The position numbers and the translations under genes were made by a program. Under the pieces are notes generated by a model. That model ran no database searches and was not told where the DNA came from. It saw only the letters and a program-made list of their open reading frames with translations. From positions 96,001 to 160,000 of the IMG/VR virus record IMGVR_UViG_3300027850_000002: a stretch of 64,000 nucleotides of DNA. One strand, 5' to 3'. This document shows positions 1 through 58,948 of the stretch, in pieces (the first letter of the stretch is position 1; each line of letters starts with the position of its first letter). Origin of the DNA: a virus.

Positions 1-330
1 GCGATCGGCGAAACGCTTGCCGAAGGCGTCCTACATCACACTGCGGGCACGTCCATGACACAGCCGATGGTCGATCAACTCGTTCGCCACGGAATCACAA
101 CCGTCGCGACCGCGAATCCCGGTCCGCGCGCACTGCCTTTCATGCGGCCCGCGTCACGTACGCCGCTGCTCAACCCTGATTGGATGGCACGTCTCGCACA
201 CCGTTACTTGAAAGAGTCACTGTTGACGGGCATCCACCGTGGTGATGTTTCGAACTTGCATGGAGCGTCACCCGTACCTGCGTACGTTGCAGGCACTGAG
301 TTTGGCTTAGGCGAAGAGGGCCATTACTGA
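1..330 (+). CDS. C-terminal fragment of a phage multisubunit RNA polymerase beta'-like subunit (5'-truncated by window)
   Basis: Frame is open from base 1 (AIGETLAEGVLHHTAGTSMTQPMVDQL...). The C-terminus DWMARLAHRYLKESLLTGIHRGDVSNLHGASPVPAYVAGTEFG parallels the bacterial beta' C-terminal block (SFxxAASFQETxxVLxEAAxxGxxDxLxG...IPAGTG). Confidence 0.6.
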   Translation, partial: AIGETLAEGVLHHTAGTSMTQPMVDQLVRHGITTVATANPGPRALPFMRPASRTPLLNPDWMARLAHRYLKESLLTGIHRGDVSNLHGASPVPAYVAGTEFGLGEEGHY

Positions 331-776
331 TGCTTGAGCGTGCACATACGAAGGGCATCGACGATGCCCTCACGTGTTTCCAGATCAAAGAGTCACGCTT
401 TATTGATTCGGTCAAACGTATGGCGATCGGTCAACCTGGACGTGTCTTCGTCGAAGGGCCCAAGGCGTTCGCTCCCGGCGGTCTACTCGGACACAAGAAC
501 GTCTGGTGGCCCGATGTCAAAGGCGCGCCTCTGAACTGGCTCGGTCGTGCGGGTACAGTCGCCGCACCCCTCATGGCATTGTCTGCTATGCGCTCAAATC
601 CACACGAAGGCACTTTGTCAAACGCGCTTGGTGCGCTTGGTGGTATCGCAGGAAGCGCGTACGGTTTCCCTGCGCTCGGTATGATCGGTGGTCCTATGCT
701 CGGAGCTGCGGGTGCGCATCTCGGGCGTGGTGTTGGCCACTTGCTCAGCAGTGAACCAAAGAATCCAAACCAATGA
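330..776 (+). CDS. putative virion cargo protein with N-terminal tag and Gly-zipper membrane segments
   Basis: Starts MLERAHTKGIDDALTCFQIKES. C-terminal GALGGIAGSAYGFPALGMIGGPMLGAAGAHLG. TGA/ATG coupled to the upstream gene. Confidence 0.7.
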   Translation: MLERAHTKGIDDALTCFQIKESRFIDSVKRMAIGQPGRVFVEGPKAFAPGGLLGHKNVWWPDVKGAPLNWLGRAGTVAAPLMALSAMRSNPHEGTLSNALGALGGIAGSAYGFPALGMIGGPMLGAAGAHLGRGVGHLLSSEPKNPNQ

Positions 777-985
777 TCAACAACGCGTACAACAAAGGCC
801 GAGCTGACGCACTCACACGCTTCAAGCTCAGCAATATACAAACGGGTGCAGCTGGCGCAAATCCGATGCTCGGCGGTCAAGCCGCGACAGGTTCGCGACC
901 ACAGCCAGGCACTTCTTTGGCGCCGCCAACTTCTTCTGCTCCTCCAATGGCGGCAGCCGCTCCGAAGGCTCACGCCCTCGGTTAG
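773..985 (+). CDS. small tagged virion protein
   Basis: MINNAYNKGRADALTRFKL tag, then a Pro/Ala-rich tail. ATGA overlap. Confidence 0.7.
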   Translation: MINNAYNKGRADALTRFKLSNIQTGAAGANPMLGGQAATGSRPQPGTSLAPPTSSAPPMAAAAPKAHALG

Positions 986-1014
986 TGCAACTGTTGGATA
1001 TTTGAGAGTCCCGC

Positions 1015-1023
1015 CCTATCATT
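1015..1023 (+). promoter_or_regulatory. putative late promoter motif CCTATCATT
   Basis: Intergenic, about 35 nt upstream of ATG 1058. Recurs at 8 other intergenic sites. Confidence 0.7.
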
Positions 1024-1057: not shown

Positions 1058-2362
1058 ATGTTCAAGCATGCGTACGTCCGAGGCATCCAGACCGCGTTGG
1101 TCAACAACGGCGCAGCCGTGTTCCCCGACGAGACCACCGCGGCCAAGGTCGCGGACTACATCGCAGAGCGTGTCGAGATCGACCCGCTGACGGCGGTGCC
1201 ACGTGAGCTGACCCACAAGGTCGCCACTGACATCGTCGCTGCTTCGGATTGGATCAAGAAGCAGCCGAACTTCAAGGCGGCATCGTTCAACAAGCTCGCG
1301 ACGTGGGAAGACGTTGCGCAGGTCGCGGACCGCAACGCGACCCAGTTGATGACGAAGGCCGCCGAGGGTTCCACCATCGAAGGTGGCGACAAGGGAAACA
1401 CCGAGGGCCAGTCGCCTGTTGGTGAGACCAAGATGGACGCGACCCAGCGTCCTCCGGGCTACGCCGAGAACAGCCTCGGCAAGACCGACGTCGACACCCG
1501 TCCGGGCGCAGTTGGCAAGGAAGAGCCGCAGCCGGTTCAGCCCAAGGAGACTGACCACAAGGACAACTCGGTCGTGGAGCACTCGCGCACCGCGTCGCTC
1601 GCGGACATGTTCCGCAAGTCGGCTGAGGGTTCGACGATCCTCGGCGGAGACAAGGGCAACAAGGAGCCGACGACTGGCGAAGGCAAGATGGACGCGACGC
1701 AGCGTCCTCCGGGCTATGCCGTCCTTCCCCACCAGGGCGCCCTCGGTGCCATGATGGAGCAGGTCACGGGCCCCGCAGTGATCGGTCGCGAGACCCCGCA
1801 GCCGCACATGCCGAAGGAGTCGCCGAGCGGTTCGAACTCGCTCACCGAGCACTCGGCCAAGGCCGCTGCTGAAGACCCGTACATCACGCTCTTCAAGAAG
1901 GTCGCGTCCGAGATCCACGAGTACCTTCCGGGCGGTCTTCACGAGGACAGCAAGATCGCCGCGGTTCGCGCCTGCATGGGCATGACGACCGAAGAGAAGG
2001 CGTACTACCTCCGTGGCTTGCAGAAGGAAGCGGCCGACGCGTCGGTTGGTTCGGAAACGCGCACGGGTATGGGTCGCTCGCGTCCCGGTGCCTACGACGG
2101 TCGCTCTGCCAACCAGAGCACCAAGCAGACCGATGACCTTCCGCCGTTCATGAAGAAGGACGACGACGAGAAGAAGGACGAGAAGAAGGACGACGACAAG
2201 GGTGAGAGCAAGGGCGGAATGCCGGCATTCATCCAAGACAAGATCGACGCCCGCAACGCCGACAAGAAGGACGGCAACAAGGACGAGAAGAAGGATGACG
2301 ACAAGAAGGAAGCTTCGTTGCGCGACTTCTTCCGTCGCATCGACGCGGCCCAGCGCGCGTGA
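1058..2362 (+). CDS. putative internal head/core polyprotein with tag, many K-x-A sites and an internal duplication
   Basis: MFKHAYVRGIQTAL tag. About 10 K-x-A motifs, two ~80-aa repeats and an acidic/Lys-rich tail. Strong GC3 codon bias. Confidence 0.8.
   Translation: MFKHAYVRGIQTALVNNGAAVFPDETTAAKVADYIAERVEIDPLTAVPRELTHKVATDIVAASDWIKKQPNFKAASFNKLATWEDVAQVADRNATQLMTKAAEGSTIEGGDKGNTEGQSPVGETKMDATQRPPGYAENSLGKTDVDTRPGAVGKEEPQPVQPKETDHKDNSVVEHSRTASLADMFRKSAEGSTILGGDKGNKEPTTGEGKMDATQRPPGYAVLPHQGALGAMMEQVTGPAVIGRETPQPHMPKESPSGSNSLTEHSAKAAAEDPYITLFKKVASEIHEYLPGGLHEDSKIAAVRACMGMTTEEKAYYLRGLQKEAADASVGSETRTGMGRSRPGAYDGRSANQSTKQTDDLPPFMKKDDDEKKDEKKDDDKGESKGGMPAFIQDKIDARNADKKDGNKDEKKDDDKKEASLRDFFRRIDAAQRA
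1355..1855 (+). repeat. two ~80-aa direct repeats inside the 434-aa protein
   Basis: KAAEGSTIEGGDKGN..GETKMDATQRPPGYA..PQP..PKET..NSVVEHS (~1355-1585) versus KSAEGSTILGGDKGN..GEGKMDATQRPPGYA..PQP..PKES..NSLTEHS (~1616-1855). Confidence 0.9.
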
Positions 2363-2538: not shown

Positions 2539-5526
2539 ATGCCGGCGATGAGCCCACGCACACAGCAATTTCAAGCGGGCATGAATACCGGTCCGGACCA
2601 AGAGTCCGCTCTGTTCGAGCAGGGCATGTCCGAGATGGCATACAACCTGTTGTCATCGCGCATGCCCGACTTGATGCAGGACGTGGTCACCTTCAAGGTG
2701 CTCAACGTCGACATCGACAAGGGATCTGGTGTTGGTGCGTTCGTGGTCTTGCGCCAAGACTCGCCGATCTACGTCCCGGTCGTGATGGTCGACAATGCCA
2801 TCAAGCCGCTGGAAATTTTCTACCACAAGGCGCTGAGCGTCTTTCTGCCCCTCTCCAAGGGGTGGCTGGATGAGATCGAAAAGACGGCGCTCGCGTCACT
2901 CGGCTCTGGTGTCAAAACGCCCGAGACGCTCTACACGGACGTCGACATCCGCAACGTGGTCGTTCCCCCGATCACGGGTCGGTTCTCGTACGCCGCGTGG
3001 GTTCCCGCGGCTCTCGTTGACGTCGCACGTGTGATGTCCTCTGAGACCCTCGAGAAGGTCGCAAGCGAAGGAAGCCTCATGCTTCCGTCGCTCCTCACAG
3101 CTGCGCCGAACCGTCTGAAAACGGCGTACACCAAGCTGCTCGAACGCAACCCTCAGCTGTTCAAGCAGGCAGCTGCAACGTACGGCGTGTCCGTACTTGC
3201 TGCAGCGTTGCAGCACCGGCTCGAGAAGGTCGCTGCCAAGCAGCAGCACGGTGGCGCGCTTTGGATCGCGGACTCCGACAACACACCGACTGATTTCAGA
3301 CGCATCTTCGGCGACAAGGCCGGAGAAGCGTACGCAGGCGTGCGCGTGAAGGGCTACGCGTCGAAGGACGAGCGGCTGAACCGCAACCTGGCAGTGCAAG
3401 AGCAACCCTACGCGCAGTGGGTCGAGCCCAAGCAGCCGGGCGTCTACACGCTCTTCGCTTCTGATGCGAAGGAGCGCACTGCGTTTGTGATGCCTTTCCC
3501 GATTGACCTGTTCGACAAGGGCACGCGCTACGGCCGACGTCCGGCAGTGCCGGGACACAACCCGCTCATCAACAACTCGTACACAGACCCTGGTACCGAG
3601 AACCAGATCAAGACGTACCCCCACAGTCGGCCAAACGAGGGGGACTTTGCAACCCGTCGGCGTTTTGGCGCTGAACCGTTCCTCGCGGTGTTCGACAACG
3701 GAGACTACATCGAGCCGTCGATGCTCGTGGGACGTCCTTCCGTTGCAGATGATCTCAGCGGGTCACTGCACAAGCGGATGTTCACAGATGTGAGCGGAGC
3801 GCCGAAGGTCGGCAAGGGCTTCTTCGTTCGTCAGATGGGTACGACGTACCAAGCCACGGTGCCCATCGAGATCAAGTCGATGTCGACGGGCTCGGACGGT
3901 GTTCGTCGCATCAAGGCGACCAGCATGGGTGGCTACGAAGAGAAGACGATCGCAACAGACCCCGAGCATCCGTACAACACGATCTGGATGCCCAAGGGCG
4001 CGGACATCGCGTACCTCCCTGCGGACTTCATCTGGGTGCCGCTCAAGGAGCGCCTCAACGAGAAGTCCTGGTTCAGGTCTGCACTTGACCTACAGGCACA
4101 CGTTTCGTCGATGTTGGCTTCAGCAGGCGCGAAGAAGGTCGCGATCAAAGACGCGGGTGCCAAGCAGTTCTCCATCAACGGGATGGCACCACTCAGCTAC
4201 GTCCCTGCGCTCAAGAAACTTGCGCACGGTTGCAACATCTCGGTCGATGACGCTGAAGCACTGCTCGAAAAGACTGCGGCCGATCGATCAACGACCGCAT
4301 GGATCGCCACGAAGATGCAGCTCGCACAGGTGCAGATGCACCTCGACAAGCTTGCCGAGGACGGAGACAAGAAGAAGTCCGACGACAAGCCGAAGAAGAA
4401 GGCGCCTCCGAGCGATTCCGGAGCGCCTCCGGATGGCGGTGATCCAGGCATGGACCCGGGCATGGATCCAAACCTCGGCCAGGACGCGGCGATGGCTGCA
4501 ATGGGCCCTCCGCCGGCACCGCCGCAGCCAGCGCCGCTCGACCTCGCCGCAATGGAAATGGACCAGCACATCCAGCAGGAGATGCAGAAGCTGGTCGACA
4601 AACAGCAGACCATCCAGATGCTGCTGCAGCGTTCGAGTGAGATTGCAGGCGGCGCACCGCCCGCACCTACCGTTCAGACTCAAGCGATGGGCGCACCTCC
4701 GTCGTCGATGAACCTCGCGACGGGCGCTCCAGGCATGCAGCCCGGCATGACCGCCAGCATGGGTCAGCCGCAGCAGCCCGGCATGGATCCGTCGATGCAG
4801 GGTGGAGCGTTTCCACCTGCAGCGAACGACCCGTCGATGATGGGTGGACAGCCGCCCGGCGGTGGTCAGCCCGGCATGGACCCATCGATGGGCATGGACC
4901 CGACGATGGGTGGTCAGCCCGGCATGGACCCATCGATGGGCATGGACCCATCGATGGGCATGGACCCGACGATGGGTGGTCAGCCCGGCATGGATCCGTC
5001 GATGGGCATGGACCCGACGATGGGTGGTCAGCCCGGCATGGATCCGTCGATGGGTGCAGGCGGACCGCCTGCTATGGGTCAGGATCCGTCAATGATGGGC
5101 GGCATGGGCGGACAGCCCAGCATGGAACAGCCGCCACAACAGCCCAGCGCAATGATGCCGCCGGATGGTCCGAACGCGCAGACGCTTCCTCAGGAAGTCA
5201 ATCCGCACTTCCTCGACCAGGCGGCGCAGTTGCATTCGGCCGACATGTTCGACGCCGCAGCCGTTGCGACGCTCGCCCAGTCGCCGGCGCTTCACGGGAT
5301 CGTCGGGCAGTACCTGCCGAACCTCGAGAAGGCTGTCGACAACCTTGCACGTGTTCTCTTGACCTTGTGGATGCAGGAGTCGGACCTCAAGCCGCAGATC
5401 GGCGAACAGACCTTCTCGGGCCTCGAGGACAACCTGCAGACGACGTTCAAGGGTCTCGGAGACCTCGTGCTCCGTTTGAGCCGTGGTGTTCAGGCGGTCA
5501 AGGAGCCGGACAACCATGCGTCATGA
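2539..5526 (+). CDS. large putative internal head protein with K-x-A sites and Met/Gly/Pro repeat region
   Basis: 995 aa. Globular N-terminal part, EKVA/EKTA/DKLA motifs, GMDPSMGMDPTMGGQP repeats, helical C-terminus. Confidence 0.8.
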   Translation: MPAMSPRTQQFQAGMNTGPDQESALFEQGMSEMAYNLLSSRMPDLMQDVVTFKVLNVDIDKGSGVGAFVVLRQDSPIYVPVVMVDNAIKPLEIFYHKALSVFLPLSKGWLDEIEKTALASLGSGVKTPETLYTDVDIRNVVVPPITGRFSYAAWVPAALVDVARVMSSETLEKVASEGSLMLPSLLTAAPNRLKTAYTKLLERNPQLFKQAAATYGVSVLAAALQHRLEKVAAKQQHGGALWIADSDNTPTDFRRIFGDKAGEAYAGVRVKGYASKDERLNRNLAVQEQPYAQWVEPKQPGVYTLFASDAKERTAFVMPFPIDLFDKGTRYGRRPAVPGHNPLINNSYTDPGTENQIKTYPHSRPNEGDFATRRRFGAEPFLAVFDNGDYIEPSMLVGRPSVADDLSGSLHKRMFTDVSGAPKVGKGFFVRQMGTTYQATVPIEIKSMSTGSDGVRRIKATSMGGYEEKTIATDPEHPYNTIWMPKGADIAYLPADFIWVPLKERLNEKSWFRSALDLQAHVSSMLASAGAKKVAIKDAGAKQFSINGMAPLSYVPALKKLAHGCNISVDDAEALLEKTAADRSTTAWIATKMQLAQVQMHLDKLAEDGDKKKSDDKPKKKAPPSDSGAPPDGGDPGMDPGMDPNLGQDAAMAAMGPPPAPPQPAPLDLAAMEMDQHIQQEMQKLVDKQQTIQMLLQRSSEIAGGAPPAPTVQTQAMGAPPSSMNLATGAPGMQPGMTASMGQPQQPGMDPSMQGGAFPPAANDPSMMGGQPPGGGQPGMDPSMGMDPTMGGQPGMDPSMGMDPSMGMDPTMGGQPGMDPSMGMDPTMGGQPGMDPSMGAGGPPAMGQDPSMMGGMGGQPSMEQPPQQPSAMMPPDGPNAQTLPQEVNPHFLDQAAQLHSADMFDAAAVATLAQSPALHGIVGQYLPNLEKAVDNLARVLLTLWMQESDLKPQIGEQTFSGLEDNLQTTFKGLGDLVLRLSRGVQAVKEPDNHAS
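4771..5100 (+). repeat. coding tandem repeat (QPGMDPSMGMDPTMGG)n
   Basis: Repeated cagcccggcatgga(c/t)cc(a/g)tcgatgggcatggacccgacgatgggtggt units, in frame. Confidence 0.9.
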
Positions 5527-6187
5527 ACGCAGTCCCGACGACCGATTTCACGCCACTCTCCGGTCTCCGCATGCACCGGCGCATCCGTACGAAAACGCAC
5601 TCTGGCAGCACAAGACCGCGGGTGTGGCTGATGCCGTCGTTGAGCGTGTAGTCGACGCATACGAAGACCACTTCGAGCGCGAACTGCTTCAGGCATGGAT
5701 CATTGCGGGTGCAACCGACGAAGACATCAACAGGCGCATCGGCATGTCGCTTGATATGTTGATTCAGTACCGCCATCTCTGCTGCAACGTTTTCGCGTTT
5801 CGCGACAAACTAGAGATGATGCGATGGGTCAATAACTACAAGGGTTCTCGCTCGGGCAAGATTCTGCTCGAGAAGGCGCTCCACTTCGACGGCATCGAAG
5901 CAATCGCACACTTGAGCGGTCTTCCGACCAATCTCAGCGCAGACCATGTCAACGAGCAAGTACTGCGTGAATCATACTTCCGAGGCATCAGCACACTACG
6001 CGCCTCGAGCATCTCGGGACCTGACGCATTGGCCGCACATCAACTGATGAAGACTGCGACTGCTACGGCTGCGGCTGTGGCAAATCGAGGTGGACCGAAC
6101 ATGTCGGAGACGTTGCTCAAACTCAAGCACCGCGAGGTGACGTGGCATGTCGAGGACATCGCGCCTCACGGGGAGATTCTTCACTGA
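5516..6187 (+). CDS. hypothetical phage protein, possible HTH
   Basis: ATG 5516 overlaps the upstream end. GATDEDINRRIGMSLDMLIQY is HTH-like. Confidence 0.65.
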   Translation: MRHERSPDDRFHATLRSPHAPAHPYENALWQHKTAGVADAVVERVVDAYEDHFERELLQAWIIAGATDEDINRRIGMSLDMLIQYRHLCCNVFAFRDKLEMMRWVNNYKGSRSGKILLEKALHFDGIEAIAHLSGLPTNLSADHVNEQVLRESYFRGISTLRASSISGPDALAAHQLMKTATATAAAVANRGGPNMSETLLKLKHREVTWHVEDIAPHGEILH

Positions 6188-7203
6188 TGCGTGCATTCCG
6201 AGAACAAGACTTCGATCAGATGGCTGAGCGTGTCGTCGATCGTTTCATGAATGGCGCAAAGCTTGCGGATGCAGCGACTGCTGAAGCCGCGGGCGGTGCG
6301 TTGAACCCCGACCAGATCGCGCGCATGGTCCAGGCGGCGAACACACAGGCGTTCTTGCGTCTCATGGACCAACAGAAGGCCCAGGGCGTTCCGGACATGA
6401 CGAACGAGTTCGACCCCATCGACGCTCGCCAGATCGTCCAGCAGCTGATCAACCAGGTCCACGTTCCACACATGGACGGTCCCGGCGGCGAAATGCCTTC
6501 GATGCCAGGCGCAGGCGGAATGCCTCCACACGGTCCCGAAGACGACGCGATGTTGCCGCCGCACGCAGAACCTGACGGTGACGAAGGCGGGATGCCTCCG
6601 ATGCCACCCGGCGGCGACGACGGTCCGTTGCCGAACGAGATGGGTCTGCACGACCTCAGCGGCGATGAACCGGACGAGCCTGCGCACGGCGCCGGTGATG
6701 ACGACGACGGTCCGTTCCCCAAGGGCAAGAAGCAGAAGGCCAAGGACGACGGCGACAAGAAAGACAAGAAGAAGTCGCCGTTCCCGCCCAAGAAGGACGA
6801 AGCGAAGGAAGCGGCGTTCCGCGGTCGTCGCATCGACAAACTCGCGAGCGTACTCGAGGACCAGTACAAGCAGGCAGAGTGGGCGTTCGAAGACGTGTTC
6901 GCCAATCTCGGTCAGCAACTACGCCGTGCACACGGTGCACCTTCGGCAGCGGCATTCGAAAAGGACGCTCTCGCACTTCACAATCATGAGATCGGCCTCG
7001 TCGTGCTGAACATGGTCAAGGAGAGCCAAGGGCTGCCCCCAATCTCTGCGGATGACGCGGCCACGAAGACCGCGGCACTCGCAGACCGACATCTCGTCGA
7101 CGACACCGAGACCAATCGGACGTTCGCAACCCTGGTCAAGATCGCGGTCGACGCGAATCGTCTATGCCTCGGCGCCGCCCATGCGAGGTCCCAGTGCAGC
7201 TGA
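6187..7203 (+). CDS. putative head-core protein with K-x-A sites
   Basis: TGATG coupling. LNPDQIARMVQAANTQAFL...FDPID N-terminal domain, Pro/Asp-rich linker, KEAA/DKLA/TKTA/VKIA motifs. Confidence 0.75.
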   Translation: MRAFREQDFDQMAERVVDRFMNGAKLADAATAEAAGGALNPDQIARMVQAANTQAFLRLMDQQKAQGVPDMTNEFDPIDARQIVQQLINQVHVPHMDGPGGEMPSMPGAGGMPPHGPEDDAMLPPHAEPDGDEGGMPPMPPGGDDGPLPNEMGLHDLSGDEPDEPAHGAGDDDDGPFPKGKKQKAKDDGDKKDKKKSPFPPKKDEAKEAAFRGRRIDKLASVLEDQYKQAEWAFEDVFANLGQQLRRAHGAPSAAAFEKDALALHNHEIGLVVLNMVKESQGLPPISADDAATKTAALADRHLVDDTETNRTFATLVKIAVDANRLCLGAAHARSQCS

Positions 7204-7988
7204 CCGATGTGCTTCTACTGGCCGTGCGTGAAGGCGTACGTCGTCATGTCGAGAAACGTGCGGGTATCATGTTGCCACTCGCGGTCGGAGCGATGCTTCC
7301 CGGCATCGTGAACAAGGTGGTCAACCGCGCACACTCGACCGAGAAGCAGATCGAAAAGACGCACTACGACCCGATGAAGGTGGCAGCCATGTCGTCGTTG
7401 GCCGGGCTTTTTGGAGGCCTGGGTCGAGGTGCGTCGTCCGCAGGACACGGGATGTTTGGACAAGAAAACAAAAGCAACAAACCCAGCGGCTTTCGTGGTG
7501 GCCTCAGTGACCTGGGCGCGTCTCCAGTCGCGGGTGTTGCGAAGGGCATCTCTGGCGGCATCGGTCGTCGCATTGACCAAATGTTCGGCGGCCACGAGTT
7601 CGGTGAAAAAAAGGACCCGTACCACATGGGTGCGGGCGCCGCTGTACAGTCGTTCGGCAAAGAGATGGGTACGTCAGGGGCAAACCTGCTACGCGATATC
7701 GCGAACAAGGCGATGGAGGCAGCGGGTCACACAGGCGACGCTTCGGCACGCGAAGCCATCATCGGCGACCTCAAGCGTTCCGATTCCGTCCTCGCGAACG
7801 CGGACGACAAGACGCTCATGGAGGCCTACCACACGATGGCGCGCTTCGCGCCCGTGCTCTCGACGGACAAGAACGCCGTACGATCGTTCCTCCGCCAGGC
7901 CGTGATGGCTGGCTCAGGTCCTGACTTCATGTCCATCAAGCTGCTCGCAGACTCCGAACGCGCCGTCACGGGCGACAAGGATCGATAA
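7194..7988 (+). CDS. putative virion protein with hydrophobic/Gly-rich segments after K-x-A sites
   Basis: EKRA|GIMLPLAVGAML and MKVA|AMSSLAGLFGG. C-terminal helical domain. Confidence 0.7.
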   Translation: MQLTDVLLLAVREGVRRHVEKRAGIMLPLAVGAMLPGIVNKVVNRAHSTEKQIEKTHYDPMKVAAMSSLAGLFGGLGRGASSAGHGMFGQENKSNKPSGFRGGLSDLGASPVAGVAKGISGGIGRRIDQMFGGHEFGEKKDPYHMGAGAAVQSFGKEMGTSGANLLRDIANKAMEAAGHTGDASAREAIIGDLKRSDSVLANADDKTLMEAYHTMARFAPVLSTDKNAVRSFLRQAVMAGSGPDFMSIKLLADSERAVTGDKDR

Positions 7989-8446
7989 TGACCCTCGACG
8001 ACCTCATCCCGCCGAACGTCACTGCTGCTGTTCGCGATCTTGGACTTCACAAGATCGCAGGCGCGATGCTCGGCGTCCCTGAGCTGACCATCAAAGAGGC
8101 TGTGGCCACGGTTGGCGCGAAGGCCTACCTCCGTCGCAAGGAAGCGCGCAGCATCGTCGATGGCATCGTAGCCTTCGCCGCACTGACGAACGAGAAGGTC
8201 GCGGACAACGCTGCGCTCATGGCGATGCTTCGCCGTGCTGCAATGCCGGCGCTCGCGGGCGCGGGTATCGCGGCGATTCCCCAGCTCATGTCGAACGACC
8301 CGAACCAATATGGTCACGAAAGTCTCTTGCCCGCGATGGGTATGGGCGCCCTACTCGGCGGCGGCATGGGTGCGATGAACTCCATGCGGCAGCTCCCACC
8401 TGATGTCAGCCAAGGCGCGGCACACGCTTTCCGCCAGATGCCATGA
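7988..8446 (+). CDS. Gly-zipper membrane-type virion protein
   Basis: HKIA and EKVA, then AAMPALAGAGIAAI and AMGMGALLGGGMGA. Confidence 0.7.
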   Translation: MTLDDLIPPNVTAAVRDLGLHKIAGAMLGVPELTIKEAVATVGAKAYLRRKEARSIVDGIVAFAALTNEKVADNAALMAMLRRAAMPALAGAGIAAIPQLMSNDPNQYGHESLLPAMGMGALLGGGMGAMNSMRQLPPDVSQGAAHAFRQMP

Positions 8447-9012
8447 CGTCCTTTGCTCGCGCTCTCGAAACGTCGGTCCTTCTCGCGGAGAAGATCGCGT
8501 CGTCGCGCTCGGAAAACCCGACGTTACGAGAGAAGCTCGCGCTCGCTGACTTCGCTGCGTTCGGCCTCTTCAAGCGGGCAGCGCTCGACCCAGCGGCCTT
8601 GTCTTCGCTGCAGCGTGGACTCGGTTGGGGTGTTGGGCTCGGAATCCCCGCGCTCGCTGCGGGACACATGTTCTTGAACGATGCGCGCGACCACAGCGGC
8701 GAAGTCCTGCGTGATGCACGCAACCAAGCGCTCATCACGGCAGCGGGCGTTGGCGGCATGCAAGCGCTCGGGGAGGCTTTCAAACGGAAGCCACAACCGT
8801 CGCAACACAACGTCAACGTTTCAATGCCGCAACAGCCAGAGCAGCCACAGCTCGACGATCAGCAAAGGCTCGCCGCCGCCATCATGGTCGATGATGTGCT
8901 CGAGGCAGCGTGCAGTCAGCTTAGCGATCCTGTCGCAAAGCACGCAGCGCTCGTGGAACTCATCAAACACCGCAGTGAAGCGACGAACCTTCTACGGAGT
9001 CTTTTGTCGTGA
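8443..9012 (+). CDS. Gly-zipper membrane-type virion protein
   Basis: EKIA/EKLA/FKRA, then GLGWGVGLGIPALAAG and ITAAGVGGM. Confidence 0.7.
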   Translation: MTSFARALETSVLLAEKIASSRSENPTLREKLALADFAAFGLFKRAALDPAALSSLQRGLGWGVGLGIPALAAGHMFLNDARDHSGEVLRDARNQALITAAGVGGMQALGEAFKRKPQPSQHNVNVSMPQQPEQPQLDDQQRLAAAIMVDDVLEAACSQLSDPVAKHAALVELIKHRSEATNLLRSLLS

Positions 9013-10751
9013 AGAAGATCATCGAGCTGGATGACTACTTTCCGACGGGTGAACCGACCGTTCAAATCATCCTGCCGTGGAACAACGGACGTAGCGTCGA
9101 CACGAGTCGTGTTACCAAGTACGCGTCCGAAGCGCTCGATTACATCAAGCACGTCGCACCTGAGCCTGGCAAAACCGCGCTCCTGCTCAACGCGATGGGC
9201 GCCGAGGAGACCTACGGACCGAACCGCAACGGCGATGGGTTCCCTGAGTTTCCCGTCCCAGCTCGCGGCAAGATTGCATCGGCAGATCGTCGTTGGTTCG
9301 TACCACCGGGCGAAGAGCTGACGCACCATTACGCGTCGTTCGAAAAGAATCCTGCCCACGCGTTCATGCACCACGCAAACCGAGATCCGTCGAAGGCCTC
9401 TGGCGTGGTGAAGAAGGCGTTCTGGAATCCGCGCATGCATCGCGTGGAGCTGCTTACCCTTGTCGACAACGACAAGGACCCCGAGTGGATCAAGCGTGCG
9501 AGCGACGGTGAGTTCGTGCCCGTCAGCATGGGCTGTCGAATCAAGCGTGATGTCTGCGCACGATGCGGCAACGAAGCGCCCACGCGCGCGGACTACTGCG
9601 ACCACGTGAAGTTCGCGATGAATCAGGTCGACTCGAACGGGTTCAAGGACTATGTCCACAACCCATCGCCCGACTTTTTCGACATCTCGCGCGTGTTCCG
9701 CCCTGCGGATCGTACGGGCTACACACTCAAGAAAGTCGCAGAGACCTACGAGGTCCGACTCTCGGCAGACCTCGGCGAGATCGCCGATCGTCTCGCGCTC
9801 AAGAGCGGTGCTTCGCAAAAGCTATCCGACATCGACAAAGTGATTCGCGCTGAACCGCTCGCGTCCAGTACGCTCACACCAGACGAGAAATCGTTCATCG
9901 TAAAATTCCGGGACCACGCGGGTCCCAAGCTCGCGGCTGCACCGCGCATCAACACGGCAGGTCTGCATGTGTGGTCTCTCGGAGAGACGCTCACCGCTGC
10001 CGCAAAACACGGTGTCGTATTCAACGACCGTGAATTCATCGGACTCGCAACAAGCAAGCTCGCAGGACATCCAGTCACATTGCTTGAAGCACAGACGGAC
10101 AAGATCGCAGCCGCCGGTCGTTGGTCGCTCGCGCTGTTTGCTGAACGCCCTGAGCTACTCGCCGAAGTGATTGATAGCGGCGTGCTCGAGTCTTCAAAGA
10201 CCGCGAAGGAGTTAGATGTATTCTTCGCGAGTGTGAGCGAGAAGCGTGCGTACGCCGGAGAGATGCTCTATCGACGTCTCGTACCTGAAGATATCGGACT
10301 TGGCCCTGACGCTGCGCCCACCACGGACGTGCTGCACACGCAATACGGTGACACCACACGCGGTGCAGCGATCGATGCACAAGACGCAGTCACGCGAGCA
10401 CACATGGGCAAGGTGGTTGGCGGTGCAGGTCTGCTCCTCGGCGGATACAAAGCGCTCACTGCATTTCCATGGATGCGTAAATTCAAGGTGCCGCTTGCGA
10501 TCGGAGCAGGGGCTCTCGGCGCATCCACGTTGGGCAAACGTCCTGGTGGAACAATGCGTACCGATGAAGGCTACGACATTCCAGACATCACAGAACTGAC
10601 GTCGAAGACTGCATCGCAGGCGGCGTTTGTTCACCTTATCGAATGCGCACAAACAATGACGCGCAGATTCGATTTCTCGAGTATCAAGGTTGCGAACCTG
10701 GCGTCGTTAGATCAGGTGGCCATGGCGCTCGGTTCCATCGTCTTGACTTGA
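9009..10751 (+). CDS. prohead (capsid maturation) serine protease with Zn ribbon and C-terminal extension
   Basis: NRNGDGFP, FMHHAN (candidate His), VSMGC (candidate Ser), CARCGN..CDH. This is the layout of HK97/assemblin-fold phage proteases. Lies upstream of scaffold-like genes and the MCP. Confidence 0.75.
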   Translation: MKKIIELDDYFPTGEPTVQIILPWNNGRSVDTSRVTKYASEALDYIKHVAPEPGKTALLLNAMGAEETYGPNRNGDGFPEFPVPARGKIASADRRWFVPPGEELTHHYASFEKNPAHAFMHHANRDPSKASGVVKKAFWNPRMHRVELLTLVDNDKDPEWIKRASDGEFVPVSMGCRIKRDVCARCGNEAPTRADYCDHVKFAMNQVDSNGFKDYVHNPSPDFFDISRVFRPADRTGYTLKKVAETYEVRLSADLGEIADRLALKSGASQKLSDIDKVIRAEPLASSTLTPDEKSFIVKFRDHAGPKLAAAPRINTAGLHVWSLGETLTAAAKHGVVFNDREFIGLATSKLAGHPVTLLEAQTDKIAAAGRWSLALFAERPELLAEVIDSGVLESSKTAKELDVFFASVSEKRAYAGEMLYRRLVPEDIGLGPDAAPTTDVLHTQYGDTTRGAAIDAQDAVTRAHMGKVVGGAGLLLGGYKALTAFPWMRKFKVPLAIGAGALGASTLGKRPGGTMRTDEGYDIPDITELTSKTASQAAFVHLIECAQTMTRRFDFSSIKVANLASLDQVAMALGSIVLT

Positions 10752-10774
10752 ATTTGTTTTTCACCGCACGGCCC

Positions 10775-10783
10775 CCTATCATT
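10775..10783 (+). promoter_or_regulatory. putative late promoter motif CCTATCATT
   Basis: Intergenic, preceded by a T-rich tract, upstream of the scaffold-capsid operon (GGAG RBS, ATG 10810). Confidence 0.7.
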
Positions 10784-10809: not shown

Positions 10810-11388
10810 ATGAAGCTCTCAAACGCACTCGGGATGATCAAAGGCGGCGAAAAGACCGCGAGCGCACCTGCGCCCACGGGAACTGCCTCTTCGTCGAGCG
10901 ACGCCGGCGAGCGCCTCAAGCAGGCACTCAAAGAAGCGACCGCTCCGGCACTACAGGCCAAGACGGCGGGTCAAGCCTCGCCCATCGAGGACCTGACCAA
11001 GATCGCCAATGACCTGAGCAAGGCCGAACATGACGCGCTGACCAAGGAGGCGCAGATGTATGGCGCCGCGGTCTGCGATGGTTTCATGGCGCGCGCAGCT
11101 CAGTACCAGGAAGCGGCCACGAAGGTCGCGGCCACGATGCCCACGAAGACCGCCGCGGTTGCAGGGGGCACATCGGACTTCGAGAAGTTCGCGTTCGAGA
11201 ACCCCGACCTGGTGAAGGAAGCCGCGGAACTCGGCTACGCCACCACGAAGAACCAGCTCGAGAAGCTCGGCGAAGCAGCCTACGCCAAGGGCTGGAACGA
11301 CACGGTCGAGACAATCCACAAGACGGCGAGCGATGCATTCATCGCCGGCTTCAAGGACACCCTCGCTCTGTTCGAGGGCGCACGCTGA
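10810..11388 (+). CDS. scaffold-like helical protein, very K-x-A rich
   Basis: EKTA, AKTA, TKIA, TKEA, TKVA, TKTA, EKFA, VKEA, HKTA in 192 aa. Internal AYAKGW motif. Sits between protease and MCP. Confidence 0.7.
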   Translation: MKLSNALGMIKGGEKTASAPAPTGTASSSSDAGERLKQALKEATAPALQAKTAGQASPIEDLTKIANDLSKAEHDALTKEAQMYGAAVCDGFMARAAQYQEAATKVAATMPTKTAAVAGGTSDFEKFAFENPDLVKEAAELGYATTKNQLEKLGEAAYAKGWNDTVETIHKTASDAFIAGFKDTLALFEGAR

Positions 11389-11873: not shown

Positions 11874-12025
11874 AGGAATCTGAAATGCTTCGTTCGATTG
11901 CGAATGACCTGCGCGAGCAGGGCACAAAGCAAGCCGAGACCCGCAAGGTCAAGGCAGCAAGCATCCTCGTTGCAGCGACCGGATTCGGTATGCTGCGCGC
12001 CAAGCTCGGAGGCACTCGTGGTTAA
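11870..12025 (+). CDS. 51-aa protein not in the ORF track (MKESEMLRSIANDLREQG...)
   Basis: GTGA overlap with the upstream stop, fills the gap. Resembles LRALADEVR of the upstream ORF. Confidence 0.6.
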   Translation: MKESEMLRSIANDLREQGTKQAETRKVKAASILVAATGFGMLRAKLGGTRG

Positions 12026-12371
12026 TCACGCCAAGCTCGCGGCGGTCTTCGACGCGATGGCCGACTACATCGACGAAGTCGAGACCGAGAAGACCTCATC
12101 TGTCGAAAGCGCGCGTCAAGCTCGCATCGACAAGGTTGCAACCCTACACGCCGCCGCGCACGGTGAAGAGTTGTCCGAGACCACACGCAAGAAGCTCGCT
12201 TCTAGCGATGCGGCCCTCGATTATGTCGAGGACTTGCTGTCCAAGCAGGCCGGCGTCGTTACTCCCCTCGGTGCAGGAGCGTCATCGGACGATGACACTC
12301 AGCCCAAGACAATCAAACAAGCAGCTGATGCGGCGGACGAACGATTCGTCAGCTGGATCGTTTCCTCGTAG
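12018..12371 (+). CDS. scaffold-like protein
   Basis: GGAGG RBS before GTG 12018. AKLA/DKVA/KKLA/SKQA/IKQA motifs. Ends ADERFVSWIVS. Confidence 0.7.
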   Translation: MVNHAKLAAVFDAMADYIDEVETEKTSSVESARQARIDKVATLHAAAHGEELSETTRKKLASSDAALDYVEDLLSKQAGVVTPLGAGASSDDDTQPKTIKQAADAADERFVSWIVSS

Positions 12372-12889: not shown

Positions 12890-13828
12890 ATGTCGGCAGC
12901 GTACAAAACTCAGACCCAGCAGGTCTCGGCTCAGTTCATCAACTCCAACTTCGTCCGTAAGGTCGAGGACGGTCGCACCAAGGAGGCGGAGGCCGAGGGC
13001 ACCGCCTTCATCCGCCAGAAGCTCCGTCAGGAATCCTTCGCGCGCGAGATCATCGAGCCAGTCATGCTGGCGGACGATGAGATCGACCGCGACGAGAACA
13101 CGGATCAGCCCAAGAAGATCGTCGAGAAGGAGCCCGACTCCGTCGCCACGTTCGTGCCGTTCAACGGTACGGCGCAGCGCACGTGGTTCCGTGGCAAGCG
13201 CTTCTCGGTCTTCTTCGGCAAGACCGAGTCGCAGCGGTTCACCAAGAACAAGTTCGAGCTGATGACGTATCAGAACGACATCCGCAAGATCCTCTCCGAC
13301 AACTCGGTGAAGGACATGTCGGACCAGGAAGACCAGAAGTTCCTGGACACCATCAACGCGATCATCGCGTTGAACCTCGCGACGCAGCGCACCCTCGCGG
13401 GCGCGTTCAACTCGAGCGCGTTCAAGCAAGGCTTCCAGGCGCTCGTCAATCGGAAGCAGCCAATCGGCAAGCTCCTGATGTCGAAGTCGACGTACTACGA
13501 GGCCCTCGACCTGCCGGCGACCGCCGTCGGTAACGACGTGGCGTCGCGGCACTACGACGTGGGCATCGAGGCCGAGGAGAAGCTGTGGGGCATCCCCGTG
13601 GTTTCGACCATCAAGCGTGAGATCGTCGACGACGTCGCCGGTGCCACCCGCCGCTCGGTCTACGTGTTCGCGCCGCAGAACTACCTCGGCGTGTTCTTCC
13701 TGCTGCAGGACGCAACCCTGTACATCAAGCAGGAAGCCGACATCATCGAGTTCTGGAGCTACGCAGCCCCGGGCATCGGGATCGGCAACACGCTCGCGTC
13801 GCAGCGTATCGACCTGCCGTTCGCCTGA
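12890..13828 (+). CDS. major capsid protein (HK97 fold)
   Basis: Strong RBS TAAGGAG, strong codon bias, 312 aa. FIRQKLRQESFAREII N-arm, backbone helix DIRKILSDNSVKDMSDQEDQKFL, LWGIPVVSTIK, VYVFAP..LG. Followed by a hairpin. Confidence 0.8.
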   Translation: MSAAYKTQTQQVSAQFINSNFVRKVEDGRTKEAEAEGTAFIRQKLRQESFAREIIEPVMLADDEIDRDENTDQPKKIVEKEPDSVATFVPFNGTAQRTWFRGKRFSVFFGKTESQRFTKNKFELMTYQNDIRKILSDNSVKDMSDQEDQKFLDTINAIIALNLATQRTLAGAFNSSAFKQGFQALVNRKQPIGKLLMSKSTYYEALDLPATAVGNDVASRHYDVGIEAEEKLWGIPVVSTIKREIVDDVAGATRRSVYVFAPQNYLGVFFLLQDATLYIKQEADIIEFWSYAAPGIGIGNTLASQRIDLPFA

Positions 13829-14419: not shown

Positions 14420-14899
14420 ATGCCGGTCATTGGAACACCGACGACGCCGACGGTGGTCTCAAAGGACCAAGTCCGCATGTTCATGCGTGACTATGCGAAC
14501 AACAACATCCTCCTCGACGATGTACAGTTCACCGATAAAGAACTGAACCTGGCGCTAGCCATGGCGACGAGTGCGTTCAATACCGTCACTCCCCAGACGA
14601 ACTTCACACCGTCGACATTTCCTCCGCAGCTGATGTACCTCCTGCTCATTGGTACGGTTCGATTCCTGCTCATGAGCGAGTCGTTCATGCAGGCAAGAAA
14701 CCAGGCGACCGTGCAGGACGGTGACATCTCACCAATCGGCATTTCAGATAAGGCCCAGCTGTATTCGTCGCTGGCGCAACAACTCAAGGCCGAGTGGGAT
14801 GAACTAACACGCGGTGTGAAGACGCAGAACAACATGGAAGCGGCCTACGCTTCATTGGGTTCTGGGTACCGAAACACGTCGCGGTTCAATCACTCGTGA
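14420..14899 (+). CDS. head-tail adaptor (neck) protein
   Basis: Helical 159 aa after MCP (VRMFMRD...FTDKELNLAL...). Position and pattern fit neck adaptors. Confidence 0.55.
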   Translation: MPVIGTPTTPTVVSKDQVRMFMRDYANNNILLDDVQFTDKELNLALAMATSAFNTVTPQTNFTPSTFPPQLMYLLLIGTVRFLLMSESFMQARNQATVQDGDISPIGISDKAQLYSSLAQQLKAEWDELTRGVKTQNNMEAAYASLGSGYRNTSRFNHS

Positions 14900-15165
14900 C
14901 CGTTCGCGCGTCATACGTGTGCGGACGGAATGCAGCGCTCGCACGGTTCAAGCTCGCAGGTACGATGGGTGCGAGCATCGGCGTCCAGCCAAAAGGTCCC
15001 GAGGTCAGCCACGGCACGGATCGCACGCAGTACCCGCCACAATCCGGCGGCACCAGTGCAGCACGTTCGAACATGCCTGATTGGTTGTGGGACCACTTCA
15101 CATCCTACGACAAGGTCGCGCCAGGGCGCGCGGATGGTACGTACGGACAAGAAGTCATCGGGTAA
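14896..15165 (+). CDS. small tagged virion protein
   Basis: MTVRASYVCGRNAALARFKLAG: tag followed by KLA. Confidence 0.7.
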   Translation: MTVRASYVCGRNAALARFKLAGTMGASIGVQPKGPEVSHGTDRTQYPPQSGGTSAARSNMPDWLWDHFTSYDKVAPGRADGTYGQEVIG

Positions 15166-15172: not shown

Positions 15173-15181
15173 CCTATAATT
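15173..15181 (+). promoter_or_regulatory. putative late promoter motif CCTATAATT (leaderless start)
   Basis: 5 nt before ATG 15187, no SD. Confidence 0.7.
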
Positions 15182-54524: not shown

Positions 54525-54528
54525 GGGT

Positions 54529-56633: not shown

Positions 56634-56634
56634 G

Positions 56635-57051
56635 TTAGGGCTCCTTGGGCTTGTCGGGCTTGTCGGGTTTATCGTGTTTGGCGGGCTCGCCTGCTTCACC
56701 GTTCACGAGCAATCGATCGGGAATCGGCGGCATCAGAACAGGTGTTGGTGTCGGCTCGACGGGCAAGACAGTCGGACCGACGATCCAACCGCCCGCCTTC
56801 AAGATCGACAGGGCCTCGAGAGGTGCGTCGAACTCGGTCTCCGGTTCTCCGAGAAAATCAACAAGGCCCCATGTGATGGGAAACCGCCCTCGCTTCACAC
56901 GAGCACGCACCCGCACGCGCACAGTGTTGTTGGGGACGGGCGCGTCCTTGGACTCGGGCTCAGCTTTACCCAGTGCAGCAGGTGCGCCTTGAAGTTCAGT
57001 TTTTTCCTGTGCAACAGGTGCACGCAGCGGTCGTTTCACCTGACGCTTCAT
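56635..57051 (-). CDS. hypothetical protein with DKP repeats
   Basis: ATGA coupling; ends HDKPDKPDKPKEP. Confidence 0.55.
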   Translation of the reverse strand: MKRQVKRPLRAPVAQEKTELQGAPAALGKAEPESKDAPVPNNTVRVRVRARVKRGRFPITWGLVDFLGEPETEFDAPLEALSILKAGGWIVGPTVLPVEPTPTPVLMPPIPDRLLVNGEAGEPAKHDKPDKPDKPKEP

Positions 57052-57560
57052 GGTTGCGGCTCCCATACTCCATTGGTGACGTGACCGTGAGCGCCGCACG
57101 TACGGCACTTCAAGCTCGGCGTCAGCGTGAGCGGTTCAACGCAGATGATCTGGTGGACCGGAGCCCCGTCGAGAGGTCGCACGGCGCAGAACGACTGGCA
57201 CACGGCGTTCGAGTTGCGTGCGTCGATGTGCGTGTGCAGCCAGCCGATGAGGATCTCGTCTTTATCGAGCACGGCCTCGAACGTGTGGCCATGTCCCAGC
57301 TCAAGTGCTCCGACGTGGACAAGCGGCTCCTTGGATGTAGGCTGCGCCTTCGTGGGATCATCACGCCACGCGGGCCTGCCATTGATCTCGTCGAGGTCAT
57401 CGGCGGTGCGCGCGATCGGCTCCTCGAACCTTTGCTTACGCAAGCAGTCACTGCACAACGGGCGGTGTGCGAGCGGCGTGTTCGGGACATGATAGAGACG
57501 CTCGTCGATGCGCTTGCAGTCGCACTCGCCGACGCCGACGTAGACCGGACGCTCCATCAT
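57048..57560 (-). CDS. Cys/His-rich protein (DUF6527-like C-terminus)
   Basis: EPLTLTPSLKCRTCGAHGHVTNGVW. Confidence 0.65.
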   Translation of the reverse strand: MMERPVYVGVGECDCKRIDERLYHVPNTPLAHRPLCSDCLRKQRFEEPIARTADDLDEINGRPAWRDDPTKAQPTSKEPLVHVGALELGHGHTFEAVLDKDEILIGWLHTHIDARNSNAVCQSFCAVRPLDGAPVHQIICVEPLTLTPSLKCRTCGAHGHVTNGVWEPQP

Positions 57561-58948
57561 CAGCGCCGTCCCGGCAACGCGAACGCGGCAGCGGCGGCTT
57601 CCTCACCCAGCGAGGCCCACTTCGGATTCTGTGGTGGGCTGTGTTCTTGGATGAGGGGCTTCGCGTTGCCGAACGCCTGGCCCATCAGGTTGCCGGGACG
57701 GGCCGGGTCCTTGATGTAGTTCGTGAACGCGTGGTTCATGCCGTGCTGGTGCGCAGCTGCAGCAGCTTCGCCGCGCTCTATCACATCAGTACGAAGGCCC
57801 GTGGGCTGACCCGGCTTGATCGGAAGGTAGTCCACGGCTTTGCCACCGACGATGTTGCCTTCGTGCACGTCGTGCAGACGCATGCCGTTGGGACGCTCGC
57901 CGCGCACGCGCGTGGCCGCTTCGAAGCTGGACGTCGCGCCCGGGTGATCGGTGGCGTGCTCGTAGAAGTGCGCGGGTCCGATCTTTGTCGGGGTCTCACC
58001 CTTGTACTGCGCGACGTACGGGTTGCCGCGCAGTGCGGTTCCGGCCTCCGCCTTGTTCGCGACCATCAGGGGACCGGAGATGCCTTGCGGGTCGTAGACC
58101 TTGCGGACCGCGATGCCGTGCTCGGGGTGCGCGACGAGCGTCGACGTTCCCTCCATGCCGCTGCCGATGTGTTTGATCTGGCTGCCGGCCGCAGACGGCT
58201 TGAGCACGCCGGGCGTGGTAGCGAGCCGGTTCGCTGCACCCATGTTGCCGGTGTTGATGTGCTGCTGGATTGCACGCATGCCTGCGCGCGCAGCCGTCTT
58301 CTCCGTTGAGAACGATGCGGCCTTCTCGCCGAGCGACTTCTCGCGTCCGGTCAGCGGGATCTCGTGGTGATCGCGTGCCGCTACGTGCGCGTGGTCGATC
58401 GTGAACTTTGCATCGAACGCGGGAAGGTGACCTTCAACGCGCCCCTTGTCGCCGAGGTAGCCAAGCGTAATGTGCGGGGTGAAGGTGTGGAGATCGGACG
58501 GGTCGATACCGTGCGTAGAAAGAGCACGCGACATGTCGACGTGGAGGTGTTCGAGGCCTGGCGCGTCGAGTAGCGCGACCAGAGCAGTCGAAGGCTTGCC
58601 GCCGCTCGAGGCGCCATCGAAGTAGCCCCAGCCTTGGATCTTGGCGTCGATGGGTTCGGTCTTTTCGCCGACCTGGCGAAGCGCGGAGAGTGCGGCATGT
58701 ACCTTCTCGGGTGGATGGTCCTCGGCGGGCTTGCGCGTGTAGACCAACGTGACGTGGTCAATGTCCTTGTGCTTCGACGCATCCGGGATGACCTTCCTCT
58801 GGATTTCCCGAAGGTTGTCAGCGACATGCTCGGGCACGCGAACGTGCACGAAGAACGTCTTTGGATCAGTCGAAATCCTCGCAGTCTTCACCTGGCTGGA
58901 GGCCAGAAGAAGCTCATCGAGCACCGCGGCAAACGAGACGGTTCGCAC
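57560..58948 (-). CDS. polyprotein: Acb1-like 2H phosphoesterase plus protein-kinase-like domain, separated by K-x-A sites
   Basis: VKTA| then HVTLVY..LVALLD..TPHITLGY; EKAA/EKTA| then IGSGMEG..VRKVY..HDVHEGNI..VDY. Confidence 0.75.
   Translation of the reverse strand: MRTVSFAAVLDELLLASSQVKTARISTDPKTFFVHVRVPEHVADNLREIQRKVIPDASKHKDIDHVTLVYTRKPAEDHPPEKVHAALSALRQVGEKTEPIDAKIQGWGYFDGASSGGKPSTALVALLDAPGLEHLHVDMSRALSTHGIDPSDLHTFTPHITLGYLGDKGRVEGHLPAFDAKFTIDHAHVAARDHHEIPLTGREKSLGEKAASFSTEKTAARAGMRAIQQHINTGNMGAANRLATTPGVLKPSAAGSQIKHIGSGMEGTSTLVAHPEHGIAVRKVYDPQGISGPLMVANKAEAGTALRGNPYVAQYKGETPTKIGPAHFYEHATDHPGATSSFEAATRVRGERPNGMRLHDVHEGNIVGGKAVDYLPIKPGQPTGLRTDVIERGEAAAAAHQHGMNHAFTNYIKDPARPGNLMGQAFGNAKPLIQEHSPPQNPKWASLGEEAAAAAFALPGRR

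Follow-up and report, generated by a model that had tools for sequence, protein, structure and literature searches.

A putative N-terminal loading tag and a candidate Lys-x-Ala site for a gp21-fold prohead protease in an uncultured myophage

The stretch of DNA analysed here, hereafter the window, comprises bases 96001-160000 (64,000 nucleotides) of IMG/VR record IMGVR_UViG_3300027850_000002, a single viral record of 175,415 bp with 59% G+C that is the genome of an uncultured myophage. The window holds a head module, in which a prohead protease, a scaffold-like protein and the major capsid protein are encoded in this order, and a dispersed group of genes whose products begin with a similar peptide of 15 residues, the N-terminal tag. 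The motif Lys-x-Ala (K-x-A) is enriched in the head-module proteins and is also found at the end of several tags. We suggest that tag and protease may form a variant of the capsid-targeting and head-protease system of phage T4. An original prediction, made from the sequence, had described a late promoter, the tag and K-x-A sites as a three-part code that packages a large set of ejected enzymes and membrane proteins into the virion.

Isolated relatives in the phage collection are limited to Salmonella phage Arash, the nearest, and three Vibrio phages, and a megablast search with 11 kb against that collection gave no near-identical DNA match. Among the IMG/VR relatives, 80 loci with a capsid protein identity of 63-97% were kept. 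Two further genomes were used for comparison, a complete uncultured relative (G2) and a more distant one (G5). The head module contains the following open reading frames (ORFs):

2539..5526, + strand: 995-residue head-module protein related to Arash gp218, 12 K-x-A against 5.4 expected
6142..9012, + strand: four head-module ORFs (6142, 7164, 7988 and 8443), several with Gly-zipper segments
9009..10751, + strand: prohead protease of 580 residues with a gp21-fold domain at about residues 40-231
10810..11388, + strand: scaffold-like all-helical protein, 11 K-x-A against 3.8 expected
11898..12371, + strand: head-module ORF, 5 K-x-A against 1.5 expected
12890..13828, + strand: major capsid protein, 41% identical to Arash gp226

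The order protease (9009), scaffold-like protein (10810) and capsid protein (12890) is the same in Arash gp222-gp226. The product of 9009-10751, for which a protease function had been predicted, matches phrog_18299, a family of head maturation proteases, with an E-value of 2e-7. In the AlphaFold2 (AF2) model, residues 40-231 have a predicted local distance difference test (pLDDT) score of 70-90, and comparison of this domain with T4 gp21 (5jbl) yields a VIA Z of 10.8 and a root-mean-square deviation of 3.4 over 141 residues, the next unrelated match reaching 7.1. Comparison with the proteases of pseudorabies virus, herpes simplex virus and human cytomegalovirus gives Z values of 5-6.4, and the Foldseek probability for the fold is 0.98. 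At the level of the predicted structure, the protein thus belongs to the gp21/assemblin fold family, which supports the predicted protease function. The residues His121, His122 and Ser173 are invariant in 23 orthologues of 37-83% identity. The His-to-Ser spacing is 51-52 residues versus 55 in gp21, a comparison by spacing alone, the catalytic residues of T4 gp21 being His85 and Ser140 (PMC12991175). No protease family of Pfam was found in any of the 23 orthologues, and a profile of the protease searched against the Protein Data Bank retrieved only designed coiled coils with E-values above 0.01. The C-terminal half, about 330 residues, is helical and includes hydrophobic helices. Two K-x-A sites lie in segments of pLDDT below 50, one on each side of the protease domain: K37-x-A39, with the Lys kept in 100% and the Ala in 80% of the orthologues, and K242-V-A244, which is invariant. 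The domain also carries an insertion at residues 183-199, a Cys3His zinc-ribbon-like motif in which Cys183, Cys186 and Cys197 are invariant and His199 nearly so.

K-x-A is also conserved in the scaffold-like protein. Across 38 orthologues, the Lys and Ala residues within the sites are conserved to 0.78 and 0.88, compared with 0.37 and 0.49 for Lys and Ala elsewhere in the protein. In 30 orthologues with a mean identity of 35%, seven K-x-A pairs are at least 90% conserved and make up most of the conserved positions. Three linkers have a pLDDT below 50, and each of them holds or adjoins a conserved K-T-A. The capsid protein contains a single site, K31-E-A33, which is invariant in 17 relatives and present in Arash. 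Candidate sites in Arash are ...LTKQAAAA in gp222, ...MTKQASAV in gp223, ...IVKVASEN in gp220 and ...LVKEAGAA in the capsid protein gp226.

The enrichment was analysed by an unbiased scan of residue pairs at gaps of 0-3, in which about 300-400 X-x-Y pairs were scored. K-x-A was the top pair in the head-module proteins, with 88 occurrences against 34.6 expected (z 9.1), and also in Arash gp218-gp225 (44 against 19.8) and in the head orthologues of G2 (88 against 37.6) and G5 (59 against 23.9). It was not enriched, nor among the top pairs, in the tail protein sets and the other late proteins. The + strand late gene set has 90 K-x-A against 49.5 expected, whereas the rest of the genome has 181 against 183.6, so that the frequency exceeds expectation as the original prediction had supposed. 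Both residues and their order appear to matter: in the same late set the reverse A-x-K is not enriched (43 against 49.8), and neither R-x-A (36 against 31.1) nor E-x-A, K-x-G or K-x-S is enriched. The Glu motifs of known phage proteases gave 39 against 26.9 for [LI]-x-E and 73 against 66.8 for [ASG]-x-E. By protein, an excess of K-x-A was found in 1058, 2539, 6142, 7988, 8443, the protease, the scaffold-like protein, 11898, 15187 and 15372, with 7164 marginal; it is absent from the capsid protein, the sheath, the tube and the spike. The wider context is L-x-K-[VLTI]-A-[AS], and at the residue following the motif (+3) Ser is enriched 2.4-fold and Ala 1.7-fold. As K-x-A is selected in four divergent phages in the very proteins that a prohead protease would cut, namely itself, the scaffold-like protein and head-internal proteins, its reading as a protease site is favoured. 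Herpesvirus assemblin cuts after the Ala of (V/L/I)-x-A, with Ala at P1 and Ser at P1'. Cutting of this type, together with the enrichment of Ser and Ala at +3, suggests that the bond cut here may be the one after Ala, between K-x-A and the following Ser or Ala.

The tag has the consensus A-[YFH]-x-x-G-x-x-x-A-L-x-x-[FY]-[GK]-[LVI]. It was searched for by regular expressions and by a hidden Markov model (HMM) built from the hits, and with both it is confined to the extreme N-termini of + strand ORFs, 11 of them in the window and two more 2 kb upstream of it, between polymerase genes. In 12 of these 13 ORFs the tag begins at about residues 4-9. The tagged genes of the window, together with one gene that has kept only the end of the tag, are:

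330..776, + strand: tagged, 148 residues, starting MLER-AHTKGIDDALTCFQI, Gly-zipper C-terminus
773..985, + strand: tagged, 70 residues, Ala/Pro/Gly-rich
1058..2362, + strand: tagged, 434 residues, charged, 12 K-x-A where 5.0 are expected, orthologues in G2 and G5 also tagged
14896..15165, + strand: tagged, 89 residues, tag ending in K-L-A, with K-x-A at that spot in most orthologues despite indels
15187..15363, + strand: tagged, 58 residues, G+C at third codon positions (GC3) 0.88, own leaderless promoter, 3 K-x-A sites
15372..15767, + strand: tagged, 131 residues, Pro-rich, tag followed by V-K-T-A
15764..16561, + strand: tagged, 265 residues
20700..21026, + strand: small Gly-zipper ORF, tag weaker (AYANGATAAAAAFGV-KEA) and located some 12-20 residues in, start codon uncertain
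21035..21634, + strand: Gly-zipper protein with only the end of the tag (MSVERFKI-KTA), the orthologue in relatives having the full tag
29960..30409, + strand: tagged, 149 residues, tag followed by K-I-A, Gly-zipper C-terminus
30409..30684, + strand: tagged, 91 residues, Pro-rich
42553..43947, + strand: tagged, 464 residues, own promoter, alone among - strand genes

The tagged proteins range from 58 to 464 residues, and the regions after the tag are unrelated in length and composition, most of them being of low complexity, Pro/Ala/Gly-rich or of the Gly-zipper type. No Pfam or PHROG family covers any of them. In the IMG/VR relatives, 61 tag hits of at least 10 bits were obtained, every one on the coding strand. 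At least 11 tagged N-termini are present in G2 and three in G5, and orthologues of four tagged genes keep the tag while the rest of each protein falls to about 35-50% identity. At the conserved Ala and Gly residues all synonymous codons are used, which indicates that selection acts on the tag as a peptide; an explanation at the level of RNA or DNA is ruled out by this free variation. The spacing of A1, G5 and A9, with Tyr, Phe or His at position 2, Leu at 10 and Phe or Tyr at 13, would give a helix with a small-xxx-small face suited to tight packing. At the end of seven of the 13 tags stands a K-x-A (binomial P about 6e-6).

A tag-like element ending in K-x-A (AAYAKGWNDTVETIHKTA) is also found near the C-terminus of the scaffold-like protein, at residues 156-175 or so (window 11275-11335). 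Its G161 is invariant, and [AS][YF]xxG[YW] is kept in most of the 30 orthologues. This suggests that the tag mimics a helix of the scaffold-like protein or uses the docking mode of that protein itself. The start of the capsid protein (AAYKTQTQQVSAQFI) was also considered as a tag and was rejected as a chance likeness that is not kept in relatives. The N-termini of Arash gp220 and gp221 look vaguely tag-like by eye and were not counted. Prediction of a complex between the capsid protein, the scaffold-like protein and the tagged 58-residue protein gave a score of 0.00 without controls, which is neutral on binding. In the product of 1058-2362, an internal stretch of about 90 residues is directly repeated (AEGSTI.GGDKGN...KMDATQRPPGYA, present twice), and the C-terminus is very rich in Lys, Asp and Glu.

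The only enzyme-like protein among the tagged ones is that of gene 42553, for which there is a weak ATP-grasp lead (atlas score 0.88). The gene was not found in five related genomes, and it looks like a recently acquired accessory gene that has been fitted with promoter and tag. Two other genes had been placed in the tagged set with it:

30686..32290, + strand: P-loop (AAA_18-like) protein, untagged, 2 K-x-A against 3.2 expected
57560..58948, - strand: 2H phosphoesterase (Acb1-like), promoter motif present, untagged, 5 K-x-A against 3.4 expected

The first, with neither a tag nor an excess of K-x-A, falls outside the set, and membership of the 2H phosphoesterase is unsupported. The large set of ejected enzymes envisaged by the original prediction is thus reduced to one weak candidate. 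Its claim that the tag occurs far from the head cluster held for 29960, 30409 and 42553, all detected by regular expression and HMM, and failed for 30686 and 58948.

The third signal is the motif CCTATMATT, that is CCTAT(A/C)ATT, which occurs 8 times in the window against 0.13 expected, a number reached in none of 100 shuffles. The whole genome has 13 exact copies and three variants differing by one base, every one of which precedes an ORF, nearly always on the coding strand. The core of the motif is a -10 hexamer, TATAAT or TATCAT, and the -35 region has no common TTGACA-like hexamer, a T-rich block being present upstream of some copies only. The copies in the window and the associated block are:

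1015..1023, + strand: promoter motif CCTATCATT, 34 nt ahead of tagged gene 1058
10745-10765: T-rich block TTTGTTTTT, conserved in many relatives, with the promoter motif of the scaffold-like gene about 15 nt downstream
10775..10783, + strand: promoter motif CCTATCATT upstream of the scaffold-like gene, with CCTAT(N)ATT in about 30 relatives
15173..15181, + strand: promoter motif CCTATAATT, followed after 5 nt by the ATG of tagged gene 15187 (leaderless-type), kept in relatives
18138..18146, + strand: promoter motif upstream of the untagged tail sheath gene
26623..26631, + strand: promoter motif, followed after 4 nt by the GTG of an untagged, small and Cys-rich ORF
29577..29585, + strand: variant promoter motif ACTATAATT, 5 nt before gene 29591
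42536..42544, + strand: promoter motif, followed after 8 nt by the GTG of 42553, an isolated tagged gene
58954..58962, - strand: promoter motif, followed after 5 nt by the GTG (58948) of the untagged 2H phosphoesterase gene
59001..59009, + strand: divergent promoter motif, followed after 2 nt by the ATG of an untagged, small and hydrophobic ORF

A start codon lies within 10 nt downstream in 11 of the 16 exact and variant copies. The distance is 2-10 nt at window positions 15173-15189, 42536-42555, 58948-58962 and 59001-59014 and at genome positions 66073, 93749 and 167263, implying leaderless or near-leaderless mRNAs, and GTG starts occur among the genes of this class. At other copies, such as that of the scaffold-like gene, a Shine-Dalgarno sequence comes after the motif. 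CCTAT(N)ATT is kept at the same place upstream of the scaffold-like and 15187 orthologues in the relatives, and the T-rich block TTTGTTTTT may be an UP-like element or a substitute for the -35 element. Owing to the leaderless starts, automatic gene calls trim the N-termini of such genes; the protein atlas copy of the 42553 product begins at residue 30 and hence has no tag. In the Arash virion preparation, the RNA polymerase beta and beta' subunits rank with the most abundant proteins, and a sigma factor was detected as well (PMC10585845). The phage studied here encodes homologous RNA polymerase subunits and, outside the window at genome positions 81248-81436, a gene of the sigma-70 family (Sigma70_r2, E-value 2.6e-9).

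Genes preceded by the motif include those of the scaffold-like protein, the sheath and the 2H phosphoesterase, several tagged genes and small ORFs without a tag, and most tagged genes are operon-internal with no copy of their own; 29960 and 30409, on the same strand, probably form one operon with 29591. The motif is therefore read as a general phage promoter of the structural, presumably late, class, which operates outside any cargo code and serves tagged and untagged genes alike. Thus the three predicted signals are real and far above chance, but they overlap without marking one gene set, since 30686 and 58948 are untagged, the promoter also precedes untagged genes and most tagged genes lie within operons.

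The motifs, their enrichment and conservation, the fold of the protease and the location of sites in predicted disordered linkers are directly established. Based on these, we propose a T4-like arrangement in which a capsid-targeting tag acts together with a head protease of a different, non-Glu specificity, with promoter, tag and K-x-A as three separate layers that would act together in the late phase; judged from the sequence, we give this proposal about an even chance of being correct. The motif CCTAT(N)ATT would be read by the split beta/beta' RNA polymerase of the phage with its sigma-70-family factor, turning on the structural operons. The tag, as an amphipathic helix, would serve as a portable address by which about 13 late proteins dock into the prohead core or shell, in the fashion of the T4 capsid-targeting sequence (CTS). 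The protease would recognise K-x-A and free its own catalytic domain at K37-x-A39 and K242-V-A244, cut the scaffold-like protein at the K-T-A sites of its linkers, and trim the tags and other head-internal proteins, possibly also shortening the capsid protein by its N-terminal 30 or so residues. For transcription timing, docking, the bond cut, and packaging and ejection, these steps are what we infer. From the predicted analogous but distinct Lys-x-Ala system, the selection on K-x-A, the CTS-like position, length and spread of the tag and the seven K-x-A tag ends are retained, and the ejected cargo set is not.

Several observations weigh against this proposal. Every characterised gp21-type protease cuts after Glu (PMC5694885). 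The virion mass spectrometry of Arash, in which 116 proteins were identified, used trypsin and a sucrose gradient only (PMC10585845). It covered 86.6% of the capsid protein and 100% of many proteins (PMC10585845), and as a tryptic analysis of sucrose-gradient particles it cannot reveal processing. Over the whole protease, K-x-A positions are no better conserved than other Lys and Ala residues (0.60 versus 0.57). Many K-x-A motifs lie in predicted helices, with Leu at -2 and Val, Leu or Ile in the middle, a heptad-like arrangement, so part of the signal could be structural. As for the tag, six of the 13 copies have no K-x-A at their end, and the tag HMM finds no hit above noise in Arash, though K-x-A is enriched there. 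In addition, genes with a tag or a tag end (20700, 21035, 29960 and 30409) adjoin tail and lysis genes, and the destination of the tag may consequently not be the head.

These last points lead to the alternative that the tag is an interaction helix for an ejection conduit, a tail-lumen complex or a membrane, and may never be removed. The Gly-zipper or hydrophobic segments in many of the proteins concerned (330, 20700, 21035, 29960 and 42553) would fit such a destination, as would the position of some genes between the sheath and tube genes or beside genes of the peptidoglycan-binding or lysis type, and the tags without a terminal K-x-A. However, tagged genes cluster most densely beside the virion RNA polymerase genes and the head module, the K-x-A at the end of seven tags is also the motif with which the protease and the scaffold-like protein are saturated, and small-xxx-small helices suit soluble packing as well as membranes. 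We therefore regard a destination other than the capsid as rather unlikely.

A further explanation concerns the motif itself. K-x-A may be a structural or docking motif of helical head-core proteins, bound by the protease or the portal, with the protease cutting elsewhere. Besides the enrichment of Leu at -2 and of Val, Leu, Ile or Thr in the middle, most sites of the scaffold-like protein are in long predicted helices, the designed coiled coils matched by the profile of the helical region of the protease have LKKIA repeats, and the mild enrichment of [LI]-x-E leaves room for a T4-like Glu specificity. Nevertheless, a pattern with a purely structural role would not usually need Lys and not Arg, or Ala and not Ser or Gly. 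The sites with the highest conservation (K-T-A in the scaffold-like protein, K37 and K242 in the protease) are in or at disordered linkers, with Thr in the middle, and other helical late proteins and the rest of the proteome show no enrichment. Such a structural or docking role is thus considered unlikely. That the tag is a RiPP-like (ribosomally synthesized and post-translationally modified peptide) leader for a modifying enzyme, or a functionless remnant of gene duplication, is very improbable, even though the tagged 42553 product may itself be an ATP-grasp enzyme. No radical-SAM gene is present in the genome, the sequences that follow the tags show no relation to one another in length or composition, and the tag is under purifying selection with freely varying codons while the rest of each protein diverges.

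The proposed tag and protease system is most likely, by analogy, a variant of the T4 system. Similar to the T4 CTS, which is carried by IPI-III and Alt and processed by gp21, the tag is a short N-terminal peptide (10-20 residues in T4) on unrelated late proteins, and it ends at or beside a candidate cleavage site that saturates the scaffold or core proteins and the protease. The protease has the fold of gp21, and the small, highly expressed 58-residue protein is reminiscent of gp67 and gp68, core proteins of T4. In T4, gp21 is itself shortened from both ends. Unlike the T4 CTS, the tag is a small-xxx-small helix with no resemblance to MKTYQEFIAE, which makes the likeness one of analogy and not of homology. 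The candidate site is K-x-A instead of (L/I)-x-E, the protease has 580 residues, an inserted zinc ribbon and a long helical C-terminal half, and about 13 genes, known from sequence alone, carry the tag here compared with a handful in T4.

The distribution of the candidate sites follows a pattern known from T4 and from phiKZ and SPN3US, where maturation involves multiple cuts in the scaffold, cleavage of the protease, loss of an N-terminal peptide from internal proteins and a single cut in the capsid protein (PMC5694885, PMC10052503). The systems of phiKZ (gp175) and SPN3US (gp245), giant phages with RNA polymerase in the virion, resemble the present one in their protease fold family and in the many head proteins with multiple candidate sites, and the Arash preparation is likewise rich in the polymerase subunits whose homologues are encoded here. 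SPN3US gp245 removes its own C-terminus (PMC5694885), and the protease of the present phage appears to release its C-terminal part in a similar way. In contrast, the phiKZ and SPN3US proteases cut after Glu (A/S/G-x-E) and mostly remove propeptides of more than 100 residues, and no consensus tag of 15 residues shared by many proteins has been described for these phages (PMC5694885, PMC10052503). Herpesvirus assemblin has a related fold, and its cutting between Ala and Ser fits K-x-A followed by Ser or Ala; it belongs, however, to a eukaryotic virus, has no requirement for Lys at P3 and is not accompanied by a cargo tag. By analogy, the tag also resembles the cargo-loading peptides of encapsulins, short portable peptides that dock diverse cargo inside an HK97-fold shell, but these usually stand at the C-terminus, stay on the cargo and are unrelated in sequence.

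The original prediction had known of no description of such a system. Its principle is published for the T4 CTS with gp21 and for the propeptides of phiKZ and SPN3US (PMC5694885, PMC10052503), while the sequence of the tag, the number of genes that carry it and the candidate Lys-x-Ala specificity across a large and almost uncultured clade look new. Tentatively, and with somewhat less than an even chance in our estimate, the gp21-fold protease may have shifted from x-x-Glu to Lys-x-Ala in a clade of uncultured Arash-related myophages of about 160-200 kb, and a subclade may use the tag to bring at least 13 proteins, the strain-specific ATP-grasp-like enzyme among them, into the head, from which they would be delivered together with the DNA. 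Should K-x-A prove to be the cleavage rule, this would be the first gp21-type phage head protease with a non-Glu specificity in the literature covered, and mature virion proteins could be predicted across that clade, Arash included. A cut directly after Lys would be invisible to standard tryptic virion proteomics, so that such processing may have been overlooked. The tag, if correctly read, would add a second, sequence-independent case of a portable peptide for capsid loading; it would help to tell which accessory genes have products that reach the host and might serve as a handle for packaging.

The remaining features of the window concern the tail and the - strand:

18178-20571, + strand: tail sheath gene (phrog_279), without a tag
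23283-24689: T4 gp5-like spike

Three consecutive - strand proteins of 1111, 377 and 346 residues (51189-56699) share a paralogous N-terminal region (..SSDG..[FY]N..), and the largest runs on into Kelch beta-propeller repeats; they are probably paralogous tail-fibre or receptor-binding proteins.

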